8,042 nucleotides of DNA from a virus (IMGVR_UViG_2693429662_000023:1-8042); one strand, 5' to 3'; positions 1 to 8,042 are shown, numbered from the stretch's first letter. Program-made: numbers and translations. Notes: generated from the sequence alone by a model not told the origin.

Positions 1-1242
1 ATGGCGAGAAAAACACACCCATTAACCACAGTGCAGATCAAAGCAGCCAGACCAGCGCAAAAGGAGTACACCCTGCAGGACGGCGGAGGGCTTTTTCTCC
101 TGGTCAAACCGTCTGGATCAAAACTCTGGAGATTTTCCTACTACCGACCATCGGACAAAAAAAGAATATTGCTGAGTTTTGGATCGCTTGAAGATGTTTC
201 CCTGGCTGATGTCAGAAAACGCCGTAGCGAGTACAGGACGTTAATCAGTGCCGGAACTGACCCGCAGGACCACGAGAGGCAAAAAAGAGAGACAGAGGCC
301 CGAAGACAAGGGAACACGTTCGAAAATGTGGCGGCGGCATGGTACCAGGTGAAAATCAGCCAGAATCTGGCCCCCAACACGATTAAAGACATCTGGCGTT
401 CGCTGGATAAATATGTATTCCCGTTCATCGGCAACACGCCAATAGATACCCTCACCGCCCGAAGGTTCGTTGAAGTGCTTACCCCCATCAAGGAGCGCGG
501 CAACCTGGAAACACTCAAGCGGGTTTTACAGCGCGTTAATGAGGTAATGGATTACGCCGCCAACAGTGGGCTGATTGATGCCAATCCGGCTATGAATGTG
601 CGTAAGGCGTTTCCCTCACCTGTAAAAAAACATATGCCAACAATCCGCCCCGAACAGCTGCCGGAGCTTATGCAGGCTTTATCAGTATCGGCAACAGAAC
701 GGCAGACCAGATTACTGATTGAATGGCAGTTACTGACCGTAACCCGTCCCGCCGAAGCGTCATCAACGCGGTGGGATGAAATCAACCTGGACGCGAAGCA
801 ATGGACGATACCTGCCGGACGTATGAAGATGCGCAGGGATCACGTTATCCCGCTTTCCGGTCAGGCTATGGCGGTGCTGGAGGCCATGAAACCAATCAGC
901 CACCACCGCAATTACGTTTTCCCAAGTCTGAAAGACCCACAGCAGCCGATGAACAGCCAGACAGCTAACGCAGCATTGCGGCGTATGGGATTCGCTGGCG
1001 TGCTGGTGTCTCATGGATTACGCGCCATATTCAGCACAGCAGCGAACGAGGAAGGATTCGAGCCGGACGTAATAGAGGCGGCACTTGCCCACGTCGACAC
1101 CAACGAAGTTAGACGGGCATACAACCGGAGCAACTACATAGAAAAACGCATCGTGCTGATGCGCTGGTGGGGCGAATTTGTCGAGGCTGCGGCGACGGGC
1201 GTAACCCTCGCCAGTGGTAAAAGGGGTATCCGAGCCGTGTAG
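1..1242 (+). CDS. int: Tyrosine site-specific integrase (P4-type phage integrase family)
   Basis: 413-aa ORF starting at nt 1 with ATG. C-terminal region carries SHGLRAIF (His-x-x-Arg) and RAYNRSNY (candidate catalytic Tyr) with spacing typical of tyrosine recombinases, plus a basic N-terminal arm-like region. Followed by an AlpA gene, as in P4-like satellites and PICIs. The att site and any tRNA would lie upstream of the window. Confidence 0.9.
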   Translation: MARKTHPLTTVQIKAARPAQKEYTLQDGGGLFLLVKPSGSKLWRFSYYRPSDKKRILLSFGSLEDVSLADVRKRRSEYRTLISAGTDPQDHERQKRETEARRQGNTFENVAAAWYQVKISQNLAPNTIKDIWRSLDKYVFPFIGNTPIDTLTARRFVEVLTPIKERGNLETLKRVLQRVNEVMDYAANSGLIDANPAMNVRKAFPSPVKKHMPTIRPEQLPELMQALSVSATERQTRLLIEWQLLTVTRPAEASSTRWDEINLDAKQWTIPAGRMKMRRDHVIPLSGQAMAVLEAMKPISHHRNYVFPSLKDPQQPMNSQTANAALRRMGFAGVLVSHGLRAIFSTAANEEGFEPDVIEAALAHVDTNEVRRAYNRSNYIEKRIVLMRWWGEFVEAAATGVTLASGKRGIRAV

Positions 1243-1738: not shown

Positions 1739-1945
1739 ATGGAAGCAATCAGAAAAATTATCTTTCGCCAGGAAGTAAAAAAAATTATCCACATCAAGGC
1801 AGACAGCACGCTGCAAAGCATGATCAACGCCGGAGAATTTCCGCAAGGTTTTCGCGTTGGTTTACGCCGTCGCGGATGGTATGAGGATGATGTGTTGGCC
1901 TGGCAGAAAGAACGCGAACAGGAAGCACGCGGAACGGCTGCTTAA
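1739..1945 (+). CDS. alpA: AlpA-family transcriptional regulator (prophage CP4-57-type, excisionase-like HTH)
   Basis: 68-aa ORF with SD-like AAGGT 9 nt upstream. Sequence IIFRQEVKKIIHIKADSTLQSMINAGEFPQGFRVGLRRRGWYEDDVLAWQ matches the AlpA pattern (LR..EV...S.ST.Y.LI..G.FP.P..LG.R.VGW...EV..W). Its position directly after a P4-type integrase is typical. Confidence 0.85.
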   Translation: MEAIRKIIFRQEVKKIIHIKADSTLQSMINAGEFPQGFRVGLRRRGWYEDDVLAWQKEREQEARGTAA

Positions 1946-3207: not shown

Positions 3208-3507
3208 ATGAGAACATATTTATCTGGCTTGACTGCCAGCGGTTATGCACACCCCCAAATTATCCCCGGCGCTATTTATCTGGATAAGAACGGTAACAGA
3301 GTAACGGTAAAAGAACTGATGTTTGACCGTGTGTATTTTATTCGTGATGGCTATTCATTTCATAGTTCGCTGAACGTGGAGATCTTTATTAGCAGATTCA
3401 GGCGGGAAATCCCGCTTTCCAGAAAAAACCATGTGTCACGTGTGAATGTGGATAAAAAACTACAGGAACTGAAAAACATGATTGCCGCGTGGAGAGAGCA
3501 GAAATGA
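3208..3507 (+). CDS. Hypothetical basic protein (99 aa)
   Basis: ATG 3208 with GGGGA 9 nt upstream. Stop TGA 3505-3507 overlaps the primase ATG 3504 (ATGA overlap), suggesting translational coupling. Confidence 0.55.
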   Translation: MRTYLSGLTASGYAHPQIIPGAIYLDKNGNRVTVKELMFDRVYFIRDGYSFHSSLNVEIFISRFRREIPLSRKNHVSRVNVDKKLQELKNMIAAWREQK

Positions 3508-5321
3508 AAAAAGCGCCAAATTTAAAACACCAGCCGCGTGACAAAATGACGGAAGTCATCATTTTTGCGGGTAGTGATGCGTGGGCACATGCGAAGCAGT
3601 GGCAGGAACAGGACGGGCGACTGGCTGGCGATAACGTGCCTCCTGTCTGGCTTGGAGAGCAACAACTTGCCGAACTGGACAACCTGCAAATCGTACCGGA
3701 CGGACGCTATCGCGTGCGTCTCTATCAGGCGGGGTTATTGCGTCCGGGGCTTGTTAATACCATCGGGCAGAAACTGGCAGCGGCAGGTGTCAGGGATGCT
3801 GATTATTACTCTGAAGGAATGCACAGCCAGAAACGGGAGAACTGGCGCGAATATCTGGAACGTGAACGGGCAGAGCTGGCGGAAAAGAAAAAGGTAGTTG
3901 AACTGCCTGTAAAGAAAAAAGAGCGGGTAAAAGACGATAACGCTTCATCACTGGCGCTTAACCAGATGGGAGCAAGTCAACGCGGCGAAGTTCTCCTGGC
4001 ACATTATGGCGGTGAACTGGCGATTCATGCTGACTCTGACACTGTTCACCATTACAACGGCGTTGTATGGGAGCCAGTACAGGATAAAGAATTACAGCGA
4101 GCTATGGCACAGATTTTCATTGATGCGGAGATCAGCTATTCGCAGAACGCCATTAAATCGGCGGTCGATACCATGAAGTTAAGTTTGCCTGTAATGGGGA
4201 ATACAGCCCGTAACCTGATTGGATTCAGTAACGGGGTATTTGATACCAGAACAGGTAATTTTCGGGAGCATAACAAAAACGACTGGTTGTTAATTGCCAG
4301 TGAATTACCTTTCAGCCCACCAGCAGAGGGGGAAACGCTGGCAACACATGCGCCGAATTTCTGGAAGTGGTTACGCCGTTCGGTGGCTGAGAATGACCGC
4401 AAGGCGGATCGCGTACTGGCTGCATTATTCATGGTGCTGGCGAACCGGTACGACTGGCAGTTATTCATTGAGGTAACAGGTCCAGGGGGAAGTGGTAAAA
4501 GCGTGATGGCGGAGATTTGCACCATGCTGGCGGGTAAGGCCAACACAGTATCGGCAAGCATGAAGGCGCTGGAAGATGCAAGGGAACGCGCGTTAGTGGT
4601 TGGCTTTTCGCTGATTATCATGCCGGATATGACCCGCTACGCTGGTGATGGGGCAGGAATTAAGGCCATTACAGGCGGTGACAAGGTGGCAATTGATCCG
4701 AAACACAAAGCCCCCTACTCAACGCGTATTCCGGCAGTAGTGCTGGCGGTTAACAATAACGCCATGTCATTCAGTGACCGCAGCGGGGGGATCTCACGTC
4801 GTCGGGTGATATTCAATTTTTCGGAAGTTGTACCGGAGAACGAACGCGATCCAATGCTGGCGGAAAAAATAGAAGGTGAGCTGGCGGTAGTGATTCGCCA
4901 TCTGCTTACACGGTTTGCTGACCAGGACGAAGCCAGACGCCTGTTATATGAGCAGCAGAAATCTGAAGAAGCACTGGCGATAAAGCGAGAGGGGGATTCG
5001 CTGGTGGACTTCTGCGGCTATCTCATGGCGTCGGTAATGTGTGATGGCCTGTTAGTGGGTAATGCTGAAATTGTGCCATTCAGCCCACGCAGGTATCTCT
5101 ATCATGCCTATCTGGCTTATATGAGGGCACATGGGTTTGGTAAACCTGTAACACTGACGCGCTTCGGTAAAGATATGCCGGGGGCAATGGCGGAATATGG
5201 CAGGGAGTATATGAAACGGAAAACGAAGCACGGTTTGCGTTCAAACGTGACACTGACGGAGGAATCAGAAGACTGGATGCCATCATGTGTATCGGTCACT
5301 AATGACGATAGCAAAAATTAA
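3504..5321 (+). CDS. Replication protein: D5_N/primase-C-terminal-like domain fused to SF3 helicase (P4 alpha-like pri-rep)
   Basis: Start ATG 3504 with GGAGAG 7 nt upstream (the track's GTG 3489 is an alternative). Walker A motif GPGGSGKS encoded near 4480-4503. Upstream segment ...GFSNGVFDTRTGNFREH... resembles the D5_N region of P4-family primase/helicases. An iteron origin lies immediately downstream. Confidence 0.9.
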   Translation: MKKAPNLKHQPRDKMTEVIIFAGSDAWAHAKQWQEQDGRLAGDNVPPVWLGEQQLAELDNLQIVPDGRYRVRLYQAGLLRPGLVNTIGQKLAAAGVRDADYYSEGMHSQKRENWREYLERERAELAEKKKVVELPVKKKERVKDDNASSLALNQMGASQRGEVLLAHYGGELAIHADSDTVHHYNGVVWEPVQDKELQRAMAQIFIDAEISYSQNAIKSAVDTMKLSLPVMGNTARNLIGFSNGVFDTRTGNFREHNKNDWLLIASELPFSPPAEGETLATHAPNFWKWLRRSVAENDRKADRVLAALFMVLANRYDWQLFIEVTGPGGSGKSVMAEICTMLAGKANTVSASMKALEDARERALVVGFSLIIMPDMTRYAGDGAGIKAITGGDKVAIDPKHKAPYSTRIPAVVLAVNNNAMSFSDRSGGISRRRVIFNFSEVVPENERDPMLAEKIEGELAVVIRHLLTRFADQDEARRLLYEQQKSEEALAIKREGDSLVDFCGYLMASVMCDGLLVGNAEIVPFSPRRYLYHAYLAYMRAHGFGKPVTLTRFGKDMPGAMAEYGREYMKRKTKHGLRSNVTLTEESEDWMPSCVSVTNDDSKN

Positions 5322-5334
5322 ACTTATGGAATAA

Positions 5335-5563
5335 CTGTTCACCACTGTTCACCCTGTTATAAATATCTTTTATATCAGTATATTATAGGGTGAACAGTTA
5401 TTTATGAACTGTTCACCAAACTATTCACTGTTCACCTTTTTGATTGTTTATTGAGCTTCAAGGGTGAACAGTGGTGAACAGTTGGTGAATAGTTTTTGTG
5501 AAACTGTTCACCCCTTAACATTATGAATTAAAAGATAAAATATCAAAAGGTGAACAGGTGAAG
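5335..5563. repeat. Iteron-type replication origin
   Basis: Nine perfect copies of CTGTTCACC or its complement GGTGAACAG: 5335-5343, 5345-5353, 5389-5397, 5409-5417, 5428-5436, 5463-5471, 5473-5481, 5504-5512, 5549-5557. Degenerate copies include CTGTTAT (5354-5360), CTATTCAC (5421-5428) and GGTGAATAG (5484-5492). AT-rich spacers at 5358-5388 and 5515-5548 could be unwinding elements. Confidence 0.8.
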
Positions 5564-5654
5564 GGTTAAAACGCAAAAATTTTAATTTACTGCTGTGAGA
5601 TAAAGCCTATGACAGCGAAGCACATAAAAAAAATCACAATCGCACGCCCTTGAT

Positions 5655-5849
5655 TTGACGGAACACTGGTTAAGGGTGTCGATAAAAATCATCGACCGCA
5701 ACGCCGGGGAAGGATATGCGAAAGCACATCCCGAACTGATTAGCGCATTCATGACCACGACGGCGGCAAACTTTGCCACGCTGACAGAACGGGAGATTGC
5801 CGAAGCGGAACAGGTAACAACCATCAACGTTAAAAGCGCTGGAGAATAA
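5655..5849 (+). CDS. Hypothetical small ORF (64 aa from TTG; internal ATG at 5751) or non-coding transcript
   Basis: ORF ends TAA 5847-5849, 19 nt before a strong terminator. No usable SD for any in-frame start, so coding status is doubtful. Confidence 0.25.
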   Translation: MTEHWLRVSIKIIDRNAGEGYAKAHPELISAFMTTTAANFATLTEREIAEAEQVTTINVKSAGE

Positions 5850-5867
5850 CCGAAGTAGTGAACACAT

Positions 5868-5891
5868 AGCCGGAGCAATCCGGCTTTTTTT
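5868..5891 (+). terminator. Rho-independent terminator
   Basis: Stem AGCCGGA (5868-5874), loop GCAA, stem TCCGGCT (5879-5885), then T7 run 5885-5891. Confidence 0.7.
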
Positions 5892-5925
5892 CGATCTCGC
5901 ATATCTTAAAAAATGGTTGATTGAT

Positions 5926-5931
5926 TATAAT
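5926..5931 (+). promoter_or_regulatory. Candidate -10 hexamer (TATAAT) for the downstream two-gene operon
   Basis: Perfect TATAAT at 5926-5931 within TTGATTGATTATAAT, about 50 nt upstream of GTG 5980. The -35 is weak. Confidence 0.3.
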
Positions 5932-5979
5932 CTATCGAAAATACTGATTATTAGATGATAAGCATCAGGAGGAAACAAA

Positions 5980-6174
5980 GTGGAACAGATAAAGCAAAGC
6001 GCTACCGTGATGATTGATCACGAGATCCTAAACGAGCTTAAAAAACTTCAATTCGATGTTATTCGCCGGATGAATGAAGCTGGTATATACGGCAGAGCCG
6101 CCACGCCAACAGTAGGCCATCTTGCTCGCGTGCTGTTACGCGAACGCCTGGGCATTGCAACAGGTGAGGAATAA
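5980..6174 (+). CDS. Small putative DNA-binding protein (64 aa; RHH-like or HTH-like)
   Basis: GTG start with AGGAGG (5966-5971) 8 nt upstream. Product MEQIKQSATVMIDHEILNELKKLQFDVIRRMNEAGIYGRAATPTVGHLARVLLRERLGIATGEE has a strand-helix-helix pattern. The fold assignment is tentative. Confidence 0.55.
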   Translation: MEQIKQSATVMIDHEILNELKKLQFDVIRRMNEAGIYGRAATPTVGHLARVLLRERLGIATGEE

Positions 6175-6176
6175 CA

Positions 6177-6338
6177 ATGGCTATCACAGAACGCGAGGCA
6201 AGCATCATTAAAGCCATTGGCGAGGAAACAAGAGACACGATAGCGCCATTAATGGAAAAGATCGCAGAGCTTGAGAGACGAATAAACAAGCTGAGTGATG
6301 AAGTTGAAGGCCTGATCTCGTTACTCGGTGAGCAATGA
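6177..6338 (+). CDS. Small charged coiled-coil protein (53 aa)
   Basis: Not in the ORF track because it is under 60 aa. ATG 6177 sits 2 nt after the upstream stop, with GAGGA (6166-6170) 6 nt upstream. Translated by hand: MAITEREASIIKAIGEETRDTIAPLMEKIAELERRINKLSDEVEGLISLLGEQ, with a heptad-like hydrophobic pattern. Confidence 0.5.
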   Translation: MAITEREASIIKAIGEETRDTIAPLMEKIAELERRINKLSDEVEGLISLLGEQ

Positions 6339-6400
6339 CAGGGGGGGGGAGTGTTCCGGCCGGAAAGTCGATCGCCCTGGACACCGCCCCCCGTCTCATT
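6339..6400. promoter_or_regulatory. GC-rich palindromic element containing a second G9 tract
   Basis: G9 at 6341-6349 in the same CAGGGGGGGGG context as the tract at 2870. Perfect palindrome TTCCGGCCGGAA at 6354-6365 and CGATCG at 6369-6374. Arm GGGGGGGAGTGT is near-complementary to ACACCGCCCCCC (6381-6392). No T-run follows, so it is not a canonical intrinsic terminator. Confidence 0.4.
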
Positions 6401-6422
6401 CGTAGAAAATTTTGCTTTTCAA

Positions 6423-6445
6423 AAAAGTTACACGAAAAGTTACAC
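6423..6445 (+). repeat. Tandem direct repeat AAAAGTTACAC x2 (12-bp period) upstream of terS
   Basis: AAAAGTTACAC at 6423-6433 and 6435-6445, about 25 nt upstream of the terS ATG. Confidence 0.6.
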
Positions 6446-6467
6446 CCCCTCAAAACGAGGTTTTTGC

Positions 6468-6956
6468 ATGGCATTAACGACCAAAAAAAAGCGGTTTGCT
6501 GATGCGTTATCAAGGGGCGCAAATCCCACGGAAGCCGCTATACATGCGGGATACAGCGAAAAGACCGCAAGGGTCAAAGGCTGGCAGCTATCCAACGATC
6601 CTGAGGTGAAAAAGTATCTTAAGGCTGTAACTCCTGATGTAACTTTTCAGGTTACAAAACCGAAAAAAGTTACAAAGAAAGTTACCGAAAAAGTTACACC
6701 GGAACGGGCATCAATTAACACCATTGAGATGATGGATAACGGCCTACCCGACCCCATCAAAGCAATGGGCAGGATACTGATTGACAACATGGACACAGAT
6801 CCAAAACTGGCTTTAGATGCCGCGTTTAAGCTGGCCCAGTTCACCCACCGCAAGATCGGCAGCATTGGGAAAAAAGAGGTTAAAAAACTCAATGCCGCTA
6901 GTGTCTACTCAAATCGGTTCCCCATCCCTAAGCCACCAACAGACTTAAAACACTGA
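6468..6956 (+). CDS. terS: Terminase small subunit (P27/Terminase_2-like, N-terminal HTH)
   Basis: Start ATG 6468 chosen over the track's GTG 6351, which would translate the GC-rich palindrome. N-terminus MALTTKKKRFADALSRGANPTEAAIHAGYSEKTARVKGWQL matches the TerS HTH pattern (K.KRF...Y...N.T.AA..AGYS.KTA). Contains a KVTKKVTEKVT repeat insert. Confidence 0.75.
   Translation: MALTTKKKRFADALSRGANPTEAAIHAGYSEKTARVKGWQLSNDPEVKKYLKAVTPDVTFQVTKPKKVTKKVTEKVTPERASINTIEMMDNGLPDPIKAMGRILIDNMDTDPKLALDAAFKLAQFTHRKIGSIGKKEVKKLNAASVYSNRFPIPKPPTDLKH
6627..6697. repeat. 12-bp periodic GTAAC/GTTAC repeat array inside terS (candidate pac or TerS-binding site)
   Basis: GTAAC at 6627 and 6639. GTTAC at 6651, 6669, 6681 and 6693, with spacings of 12, 12, 18, 12 and 12 bp. 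Same core as the upstream AAAAGTTACAC repeats. Confidence 0.5.
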
Positions 6957-6967
6957 GGTAGCGAACT

Positions 6968-7129
6968 ATGAGCGAATACATCACAGACCCTATTGATGTA
7001 CTCACGGAAATCATGAACGACAAGCAGCAGTCGACCGAAATACGGTTACAGGCCGCCGCTGTTCTGATGCCATATTTTCACGAAACACTAAACCCGTGCT
7101 TCCAGGAGGAGGAAGAAGATGATCTGTAA
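6968..7129 (+). CDS. Small protein (53 aa) resembling the C-terminal segment of TerS, with acidic tail
   Basis: ATG 6968 with GAGG 9 nt upstream. Translated by hand: MSEYITDPIDVLTEIMNDKQQSTEIRLQAAAVLMPYFHETLNPCFQEEEEDDL. Aligns by eye with TerS residues DPIKAMGRILIDNMDTDPKLALDAAFKLAQFTH (shared DPI...I..D.......AA.....F.H). Overlaps the capsid gene start by 11 nt. Confidence 0.45.
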   Translation: MSEYITDPIDVLTEIMNDKQQSTEIRLQAAAVLMPYFHETLNPCFQEEEEDDL

Positions 7130-8042
7130 AAACATGAAAGGCGTGTCAGCAGTTCGCGCCGCCAGCGTGCTGGCATCGTGTAAATTTAGCCATGCTGACG
7201 CTATAGAGATGACGAAAAGAAATGATCCGGCAGTATCGTTATTTCTTGAAAAATCCGTAGTAGCAGGAATGAACACGGATAACATGCCGTCGCTGGTGGC
7301 AGAGCCGATAGTAAGAGAGCTTGGCGAGTATATTTTTTCGCAGTCTGTACCAGGCAAGCTAATCAGCAGCGCGCTAAATCTTCCTTTTGGCGCAAAATTG
7401 CAGTCAATATCAGGCAAGGGCAGTAAATGGCTTAAAGAAGCCGAAGAAATCCCTGTCAAAGAGGGAGAAGTAAACGAAAGTGCGCTAAAACTGTGCAAAC
7501 TTGGCGCTATTGTGATGCTGAATAACGAGCTAATCAAATTTAGCACCCCTGGTACAAATTCAGCGATCAGAGACTTGATCACATCGGAATCGGTGAAAGA
7601 AATAGATAAAAAATTTCTTTCCAGTGACCAGGAGGTGGCTGGCGTATCCCCTGAGGGCGTGCTTAATGGTGCTGATGAGGCCGAAAACTTCATAGAGCTT
7701 TTCAAAAAGCACATAGCGAACGGTAACACGCTTTCCACGTCGTCGCTAATCTTGCCCGTAGAAAACGCCTTACAGCTTACTGATGCTGAGTTCTGGCAGA
7801 TAGAGCTTTTGAGAATACCGGTAATTGTGAGCGAACAGGCGGATCGCATGATGCTGATAGACGCTCAAAAGCTGATTATTAACGTTGAAGCCACGGTTAT
7901 AACCCCAACTGATGAGGCGGTAATAAAAACCGAATCAGGGGCGGTTAGCCTTTTCCAGAATGACGCTACAGCGTTCAGGGCAATCACCTATTGCGGATGG
8001 CAAAAACTCGATAAGGCCGTCACCGTTCTGGCGAAAAGCTGA
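7119..8042 (+). CDS. Major capsid protein, HK97 fold (Phage_capsid family), 307 aa
   Basis: ATG 7119 preceded by AGGAGGAGGAAG. Internal motif EIDKKFLSSDQEVAGVSPEGVLNGA and C-terminal LFQNDATAFRAITYCGWQKLDKAVTVL match hallmark HK97-family capsid motifs (..ID.aFl.GdG...P.GlLN.. and ..F..D.tAfRa..R.......AfvvL). Stop TGA at 8040-8042 coincides with the window end. Confidence 0.7.
   Translation: MICKNMKGVSAVRAASVLASCKFSHADAIEMTKRNDPAVSLFLEKSVVAGMNTDNMPSLVAEPIVRELGEYIFSQSVPGKLISSALNLPFGAKLQSISGKGSKWLKEAEEIPVKEGEVNESALKLCKLGAIVMLNNELIKFSTPGTNSAIRDLITSESVKEIDKKFLSSDQEVAGVSPEGVLNGADEAENFIELFKKHIANGNTLSTSSLILPVENALQLTDAEFWQIELLRIPVIVSEQADRMMLIDAQKLIINVEATVITPTDEAVIKTESGAVSLFQNDATAFRAITYCGWQKLDKAVTVLAKS

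Follow-up and report, generated by a model that had tools for sequence, protein, structure and literature searches.

We analysed an 8,042-nucleotide stretch of viral DNA (IMGVR_UViG_2693429662_000023:1-8042, hereafter the window), which, judged by its gene content, is a phage satellite of Escherichia coli of the phage-inducible chromosomal island (PICI) type. The region 6341-6697, which runs into the gene of the small terminase subunit (terS, product TerS), is probably the packaging signal of this satellite. It would be organized like a cos site, i.e., a cleavage site (cosN) of the helper phage's type followed by short GTTAC repeats acting as cosB-like elements for the satellite's own TerS. 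As judged from sequence comparisons, the GTTAC array is most likely the recognition part of this site, a set of docking sites for the satellite's small terminase. An earlier note on this DNA had taken the repeats as a candidate packaging-initiation site, citing pac sites as precedent. Comparative evidence (see below) favours a TerS-linked recognition element working at the DNA level, in a signal of the cos type and not of the pac type; the recognition part does lie in the 6423-6697 range assigned to it, and cutting probably takes place outside that range, at 6385-6394.

Two copies of AAAAGTTACAC were located 5' of the terS ATG (position 6468), 23-45 bp before the start codon, and six core copies inside the gene: the inverted form GTAAC starting at 6627 and 6639, and GTTAC at 6651, 6669, 6681 and 6693. 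These copies, as well as the in-frame peptide repeat KVTKKVTEKVT, had been correctly described before; the near-constant 12-bp period proposed with them holds for most steps, with one step of 18 bp (spacing of 12 bp upstream and of 12, 12, 18, 12 and 12 bp in the gene). Both 12-bp arrays were recovered by Tandem Repeats Finder (TRF). The exact sequence AAAGTTAC was present six times in 8 kb against 0.26 expected, always within 6424-6697, and 0 of 200 shuffled sequences reached six. AGTTAC was found nine times in the window (2.4 expected), seven of them inside the 6424-6697 stretch, and GTTAC/GTAAC 29 times over the whole window (11.6 expected). The copies at 6651 (GGTTACA) and 6627 (GTAACTCC) fit a 5-6-bp core only. 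All six in-gene copies correspond to in-frame Val-Thr codons, in the contexts AVTP, DVTF, QVTKPK, KVTK, KVTE and KVTP. Relative to the putative cut described next, the first repeat lies 33 bp downstream and the second at +45, with the remaining, in-gene copies at +233 to +303.

The block upstream of the array (6341-6421) showed about 80% identity by BLASTn to the spacer between the HNH endonuclease gene and terS in 78 phage records, including Shiga toxin (Stx) phages 1717, 2851 and BP-4795. The alignments with phages ended at query positions 75-87, i.e., window positions 6409-6421, just short of the first repeat; a run of 31 nt (CGATCGCCCTGGACACCGCCCCCCGTCTCAT) was identical between the window and an E. 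coli prophage with the gene order HNH-TerS-TerL (L023). Alignment of 11 loci revealed a common layout consisting of a G-run, a variable stretch of ~35 nt, GGACACC.C.CCCCCTCTCA, AGAGAAAAAAT, a T-run and, at a constant distance, the first repeat, whose core depends on the class (see below); AGAGAAAAAAT and the T-run were kept in 11 of 11 loci. Repeated elements were thus present beside the putative cosN on its terS side, in a position fixed in the 11 loci. Analysis of virion DNA of the Stx1 phage Lys8385Vzw with PhageTerm was reported to show cos packaging with 10-nt 3' cohesive ends, CGCCCCCCCT being at the genome end (PMC7946995). The record of this phage ends in ...GGACACCGCCCCCCCT and starts with CTCACGCAGAG / CTCACGCAGAGAAAAAATT. 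The window sequence CGCCCCCCGT at 6385-6394 matches CGCCCCCCCT at nine of ten positions, and the window sequence itself recurs, with ten of ten positions identical, in 14 phage loci of the GTTAAC class (see below). An IMG/VR contig of a Stx-type phage (L058) starts at TCTCACGCAGAG, one base off the start of the Lys8385Vzw record, and position 1 of L058 and L095 represents an assembly break at the cos position in an independent data set. The G-run varied in length among nearly identical islands, from G9 in the window to G7 in L002; it may be cosQ-like or provide the context of a second nick. A hairpin between the G-run and a C-run (6341-6392) was considered as a terminator and dropped: its energy was -33.8 kcal/mol but z was -1.8, and no U-tract was present.

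The diversity of TerS was drawn from an alignment-based search for homologous proteins combined with look-ups of their contigs. An alignment scan for TerS gave one locus among genome contigs (L014) and 80 loci among viral contigs, with just two TerS types in the latter. Relatives with 55-65% TerS identity were found in other E. coli islands, a Salmonella island, metagenomic contigs and a complete Hafnia prophage. All of them keep AAAAAGTTACAC 29-48 bp 5' of the start codon, and one or two copies of GTAACT plus two to four of AAAAAGTTACA at the equivalent segment of terS. Over five lineages in this identity range, the Val-Thr pairs of the linker that follows the DNA-binding domain of TerS were encoded by GT[T/A]AC in 21 of 21 cases, and the Thr codon extended the motif, being ACA in plus-strand and ACT in minus-strand copies. 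Where residues were conserved between lineages, codon identity reached 87% in the linker Val-Thr pairs, versus 50% elsewhere and 40% at other Val or Thr residues; the residues flanking the dipeptide varied among relatives.

Sister TerS lineages presented Val-Asn repeats at the equivalent linker site (EVNRRVNPEVNP, KVNPKVNPKVN), encoded by GTT AAC, and GTTAAC was found just 5' of their terS too. These lineages comprised prophage loci of Morganella, Dryocola and Phlomobacter, the metagenomic phages L098 and L100, and the satellite-like L099, which has AAAAGTTAACCC three times. When 6-mers around terS were ranked by enrichment without bias, AGTTAC/GTTACA or GTTAAC came out on top in 12 of 14 loci. 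Since the change of motif from GTTAC to GTTAAC is accompanied by a change of the peptide from VT to VN, it is the DNA site that is under selection, and the peptide follows it. The 12-bp spacing recurs in non-coding copies (window, L004 and L101) and would therefore be a property of the protein-DNA assembly and not of codon phase alone. From these comparisons we conclude that the repeats are functional at the DNA level and that the DNA signal dictates the linker peptide; the double constraint on DNA and peptide suspected earlier is borne out by the frozen linker codons and by the VT/VN switch. A second type of E. coli island (L004, positions 5348-5836, and L005) encodes a TerS of the GTTAC class, 62% identical to that of the window, and has its own HNH gene 5' of cos; its spacer is longer and holds six repeats, another four lie in its terS, and a type I restriction gene adjoins the island. 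A limited literature search, which is not proof of novelty, found no description of the packaging signal of this PICI type or of VT/VN repeats in TerS.

The terS product matched Pfam Terminase_2 (PF03592, E 1.9e-10, above the curated cutoff) and phrog_641 (E 3e-43), and its start codon is backed by a conserved N-terminus, M(A)LTTKKK. The PDB profile match was SF6 G1P (3ZQP, E 0.002), the nearest solved structures being the SF6 G1P small terminase and its DNA-binding domain. Profiles and an AlphaFold model showed the arrangement of a small terminase, an N-terminal helix-turn-helix (HTH) followed by a helical core: a confident four-helix HTH domain at residues 5-54, a linker at 57-84 and a helical core at 96-146. 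The repeat-coded residues 57-84 had a predicted local distance difference test score (pLDDT) below 50, i.e., the linker is predicted to be disordered. Linker units differed among alleles: two, three or four KVT units were seen in E. coli islands (P0003, P0004 and P0008 compared with the window TerS), and P0068 (L100) had about 12 [V/I]N dipeptides and its near relative P0052 (L098) about five. The arrays appear to expand and contract in whole 12-bp units, and the variation in unit number, together with the low pLDDT, suggests that the protein tolerates changes in the linker. Similarity along TerS was mosaic: the HTH was 67-73% identical to GTTAC-class proteins versus 59% to Stx-phage TerS, and the C-terminal core was 62% identical to Stx-phage TerS versus 49-57% to the GTTAC-class proteins of Hafnia, Salmonella and metagenomes. 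Such a mosaic fits a protein that would read its own sites and yet work with the large terminase (TerL) of E. coli Stx-type phages.

A 53-aa open reading frame (ORF) after terS matches only the helical core of TerS (residues 91-133, DPIDVLTEIMND...LQAAAVLMPYFHE versus DPIKAMGRILID...LDAAFKLAQFTHR) and lacks the DNA-binding domain; we refer to it as mini-TerS. It matched phrog_641 at positions 89-125 (E 3.5e-7), and hhalign against the TerS family profile gave a probability of 93% (E 2.8e-7); BLASTP against TerS found no match, the relationship being visible by profile methods only. The mini-TerS may modulate terminase assembly by inserting into, poisoning or remodelling TerS rings (compare Ppi and Rpp, see below). 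ORFs of 50-53 aa directly after terS, in the position of the mini-TerS, were also seen in the satellite loci L009, L010 and L099, and not in phages.

The window had the gene set of Gram-negative PICIs (Table 1): an integrase, an AlpA-like regulator, a DUF4222 protein before a D5-type primase, three small ORFs between primase and terS, TerS, and a capsid homolog, in an island of ~8.6 kb at tRNA-Pro. This order matches the layout described for Gram-negative PICI satellites (PMC6092414, PMC10111431). The island, delimited through a copy of 99.9% identity in E. coli NZ_CP148374, measures ~8.6 kb, adjoins tRNA-Pro and ends after the capsid gene; the capsid homolog reaches the window end and has a full length of 307 aa in L001 (13221-14144). 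Of 5426 complete E. coli genomes, 220 carried the terS-capsid module, with many O157:H7, O111:H8 or O103 strains among these carriers; the integrases and replication genes paired with the module varied. ORF listing, profile searches and the context in NZ_CP148374 revealed neither HNH nor TerL genes in the window island, which must then borrow both from a helper; an HNH-dependent (HK97-like) cos module is thus incomplete in this island, and HNH is present in the island type L004. All the phage relatives share the gene order HNH, TerS, TerL, protease-capsid fusion and portal, and their TerL matched Pfam TerL_ATPase/TerL_nuclease. The presence of HNH beside the terminase genes has been linked to packaging of the cos type (Kala et al. 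2014, cited through a preprint). Stx-type phages carry five GTTAAC copies at +34 to +148 (first pair at +34/+41) in a 230-bp spacer and none in terS, and their TerS has another DNA-binding domain and a long linker unrelated to that of the satellite; the satellite spacer is ~75 bp with two repeats. One IMG genome harboured both the satellite (L017) and a Stx-type phage (L058). We infer that the helper is a resident Stx-type lambdoid phage of the HNH-cos kind.

Table 1 Features of the 8,042-nucleotide window
Feature	Position	Strand	Basis or remarks
Tyrosine integrase	1-1242		ORF listing and profile searches
AlpA-like regulator	1739-1945		ORF listing and profile searches
D5-type primase	3489-5321		ORF listing and profile searches
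Conserved cos block (G-run, GGACACCGCCCCCC, TCTCA, AGAAAA/T-tract), common to HNH-TerS-TerL phages	6341-6421	+	BLASTn; 11-locus alignment
G9 run, left edge of cos block	6341-6349	+	Five G invariant in 11/11 loci
Putative cosN cohesive-end sequence CGCCCCCCGT	6385-6394	+	Match to Lys8385Vzw 3' end
A/T-tract spacer TCTCATTCGTAGAAAATTTTGCTTTTCAAAA between putative cut and first repeat	6395-6422	+	11-locus alignment
Upstream repeat 1, AAAAGTTACAC	6423-6433	+	+33 from putative cut; position kept in every relative, with class-specific core (GTTACAC or GTTAACC)
Upstream repeat 2, AAAAGTTACAC	6435-6445	+	12 bp after repeat 1; TRF, motif count
terS, 162 aa	6468-6956	+	Pfam and PHROG matches; AlphaFold model; conserved N-terminus supports start codon
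In-gene repeat, AGTTAC	6627-6632	-	Codons Val54-Thr55
In-gene repeat, AAAGTTAC	6639-6646	-	Codons Val58-Thr59
In-gene repeat, weaker copy GGTTACA	6651-6656	+	Codons Val62-Thr63
In-gene repeat, AAAGTTAC	6666-6673	+	Lys-Val68-Thr69
In-gene repeat, AAAGTTAC	6678-6685	+	Lys-Val72-Thr73
In-gene repeat, AAAGTTAC	6690-6697	+	Lys-Val76-Thr77
Mini-TerS, 53 aa	6968-7129	+	phrog_641 match; hhalign to TerS family profile
Major-capsid-protein homolog, last island gene	7119-8042	+	Pfam Phage_capsid E 1e-6; L001 annotation

In the mechanism that we propose, once the island is induced, its TerS, with its HTH of the SPP1/SF6 G1P type, would occupy the (A)AAGTTAC(A) elements as an oligomer to the right of cosN and bring the helper TerL and HNH to the satellite cosN. 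The helper TerL/HNH nuclease would then cut the CGCCCCCCGT core at 6385-6394, leaving 3' cohesive ends, and packaging would run rightwards into terS. The helper TerS, which would read GTTAAC, would not be needed; specificity would be switched without changing the cut site, and the choice of the island for packaging would not depend on the phage genome. The in-gene array would be accessory, raising the occupancy or the cooperativity of TerS: with a spacer of only ~75 bp, extra elements would sit in the terS linker stretch, which tolerates almost any sequence, and Val-Thr codons would be forced there. That TerS is the binder, that the in-gene copies are used and that the satellite is cut at 6385-6394 we infer from sequence evidence. 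Phages and satellites share no element-encoded DNA-binding protein other than TerS, the satellites having neither HNH nor TerL, and a host factor is unlikely as the binder because both motif classes occur in E. coli. Residues 20-21 of the HTH, at the start of helix 2, are P/S/H-T/K/A in the GTTAC class and Q/K-R/T in the GTTAAC class.

Several points weigh against this proposal. The cohesive end has been mapped, by PhageTerm, in one related phage only, and that phage belongs to the GTTAAC class. Enterobacter and Pantoea phages (L102 and L103) have two upstream sites and none in terS, so the in-gene copies are non-essential in this terminase family and another role for them is possible. The correlation between HTH residues 20-21 and the motif may reflect a single evolutionary switch, which would make it weak as covariation. 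A rule based on residue 39 (W/C/Y with GTTAC, S with GTTAAC) was dropped, residues 20-21 fitting better: P0048 has Cys39 like GTTAC-class proteins but reads GTTAAC, leaving no single-residue rule at that position. With a single base pair separating GTTAC from GTTAAC, cross-recognition by the helper TerS may occur. Finally, the 12-bp spacing is off the helical repeat.

Of the other explanations, it is unlikely that a different binder, namely the HNH protein, TerL, the mini-TerS or an IHF-like bender, recognizes the repeats instead of TerS. HNH and TerL do act at this locus in phages, and the A/T-tracts beside the first repeat suggest DNA bending. Yet the satellite has no HNH or TerL and its motif differs from that of the presumed helper, whose HNH and TerL must serve it; the mini-TerS is devoid of a DNA-binding domain, and a host factor fails to explain two motif classes within E. 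coli.

The position of two copies 23-45 bp before the start codon, as direct repeats of about one turn typical of activator sites, would also suit a transcriptional array by which an activator or repressor (AlpA, a late regulator of the helper or TerS as autoregulator) controls the terS-capsid operon, and a satellite has to bring its late genes into step with the helper. We regard this as quite unlikely. No sigma-70-like promoter was detected in 5300-7200, against 3.4 expected in shuffled sequences; the phage arrays lie between HNH and terS, downstream of the lysis genes, presumably within a late operon and so with no need for a promoter; six to twelve copies stand 160-300 bp into the coding region; the motif class tracks the type of the adjacent TerS and not the regulators, which differ between phages and satellites; and the distance between cos core and arrays is always the same. 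The lack of a promoter in 5300-7200 and the presence of arrays in phage HNH-terS spacers also tell against the activator-binding array for a late promoter that the earlier note had offered as its second option, while extra autoregulation by TerS is compatible with all the results.

A headful pac site, to which TerS would bind and where TerL would cut imprecisely in or near terS as in P22, SPP1 and the pac-type Staphylococcus aureus pathogenicity islands (SaPIs), is very improbable. The array does lie within and beside terS, as in P22 and SPP1 (PMC9611059), the closest family to the HTH is SF6/SPP1 G1P, of pac phages, and SaPIs with their own TerS are pac-type. But every phage relative with this TerS family has HNH directly upstream and a TerL_ATPase/TerL_nuclease TerL, and its terminase does not appear to be of the headful kind, the related phage having been reported as cos with a 10-nt 3' end (PMC7946995); moreover, the satellite keeps the cohesive-end sequence and its flanks nearly unchanged, for which a pac element would have no reason. 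Selection of the Lys-Val-Thr linker as protein, or neutral slippage, with the DNA likeness as by-product, is hardly credible: unit gain and loss among alleles resembles slippage and the linker of the window allele is Lys-rich, but identical 11-mers occur in the upstream non-coding DNA, synonymous positions are frozen, the two opposite-strand copies still keep the DNA core, and sister lineages turn to Val-Asn as the DNA motif turns to GTTAAC while the flanks of the dipeptide are not conserved.

Other parts of the island presented further features. The capsid homolog has no protease domain, and related phages have a protease fused in a 645-aa capsid protein; by its resemblance to Ccm of SaPIbov5 and to the capsid homolog of PmCI172, it may serve to redirect capsid size. 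Just 3' of the primase gene, arrays of a 10-11-bp unit (ACTGTTCACC, 2.6 copies at 5334-5358, and the inverse GGTGAACAGT(T), three copies at 5463-5494) probably are the island replication origin. The terS array was itself considered as origin iterons and ruled out, as such arrays accompany terS in phages without this primase and a separate iteron cluster follows the primase gene. A 20-bp tandem repeat (AAAAACGGTGGAAACCGTTT, two copies at 1633-1672) with palindromic units, ~70 bp 5' of the AlpA-like gene, is a possible operator for an induction switch. An ORF of 53 aa predicted as coiled coil (6177-6338, ...GLISLLGEQ) ends right before the cos block; it is kept in E. coli, Salmonella and metagenome satellites (L008, L010) and absent from phages, and in the RefSeq record of L003 its homolog bears the label 'antitermination protein NusG', apparently in error.

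The findings may extend beyond one island. Tentatively, and as slightly short of an even chance, we suggest that a whole lineage of HNH-cos phages and satellites writes TerS sites (6-8 bp, 12-bp spacing) into the terS linker, and that the satellites pair a foreign TerS and array with the helper cosN and add a mini-TerS that may poison or remodel the helper ring. Were this borne out, a ring-type small terminase would for the first time have an explicit, countable recognition code, and HNH-cos helpers would be open to a new route of hijacking. Known pac and cosB signals are for the most part single, degenerate or weakly bound in vitro. The array described here consists of countable, nearly identical short elements at a set spacing, in two natural classes (GTTAC and GTTAAC) one base pair apart and matched to small HTH changes, and with its TerS forms a pair tractable for binding and cryo-electron microscopy work; how ring-shaped small terminases read DNA has been described as unclear and controversial (PMC9611059). 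It also suggests a route by which enterohaemorrhagic E. coli PICIs could divert the DNA-packaging apparatus of Stx-type prophages, through a shared cut site, a private array and an own TerS, which is relevant to island mobility in O157, O111 and O103 strains. More generally, it is a clear example from nature of a cis-acting DNA signal taking precedence over protein-coding freedom.

Compared with known systems, the proposed signal resembles lambda cos (cosQ-cosN-cosB) in having a putative nick site, a bend-prone A/T stretch and several short, presumed TerS elements on the terS-proximal side (R3/R2/R1, bound by gpNu1 in lambda), the elements setting packaging specificity and a nuclease subunit cutting cosN (PMC6739421, PMC9026076). 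It differs in that the island TerS is of the Terminase_2 family with an SPP1/SF6-like HTH, whereas gpNu1 is a winged-helix protein; the related phage has 3' 10-nt ends and lambda 5' 12-nt ends; the island elements are of 8-11 bp at 12-bp spacing, in up to eight or more copies, mostly inside terS; and an HNH protein belongs to the machinery of the related phages. E. coli PICIs of the Rpp type (EcCICFT073) also have int, alpA, primase and a late zone, keep the helper cosN/cosQ with their own cosB, and redirect the helper terminase through an island-encoded specificity factor (PMC6739421). In contrast to them, the present island is without Rpp and has a complete TerS, the core-only mini-TerS and a capsid homolog; its presumed helpers are HNH-cos phages in place of lambda/phi80, and its elements are explicit repeats, whereas those of the Rpp cosB are still undefined.

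In SPP1 (pacL-pacC-pacR), recognition sequences are found at two separated places, pacL and pacR. The HTH family of the island TerS is that of SF6 G1P, and SPP1 and P22 are precedents for recognition sequences inside terS, with P22 pac in gene 3 and SPP1 contacts on either side of the cut, partly in gene 1 (PMC9611059). Both SPP1 and P22 are, however, headful, SPP1 being cut between two binding regions and P22 having a single 22-bp site, whereas both repeat groups of the island lie on one side of the cohesive-end site and the in-gene tandem array shapes the protein. HNH-dependent cos phages serve the cos-type SaPIbov5, as they presumably serve the island, and both elements encode a capsid homolog (Ccm in SaPIbov5); unlike the island, SaPIbov5 simply carries a copy of the complete helper cos and lacks a TerS. 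The pac SaPIs (SaPI1 and SaPIbov1) bring a TerS and a recognition site of their own, along with Ppi, a factor directed against the helper TerS, and differ in being headful. The island would thus merge both SaPI ideas: a helper-type cosN together with its own TerS and its own recognition repeats.

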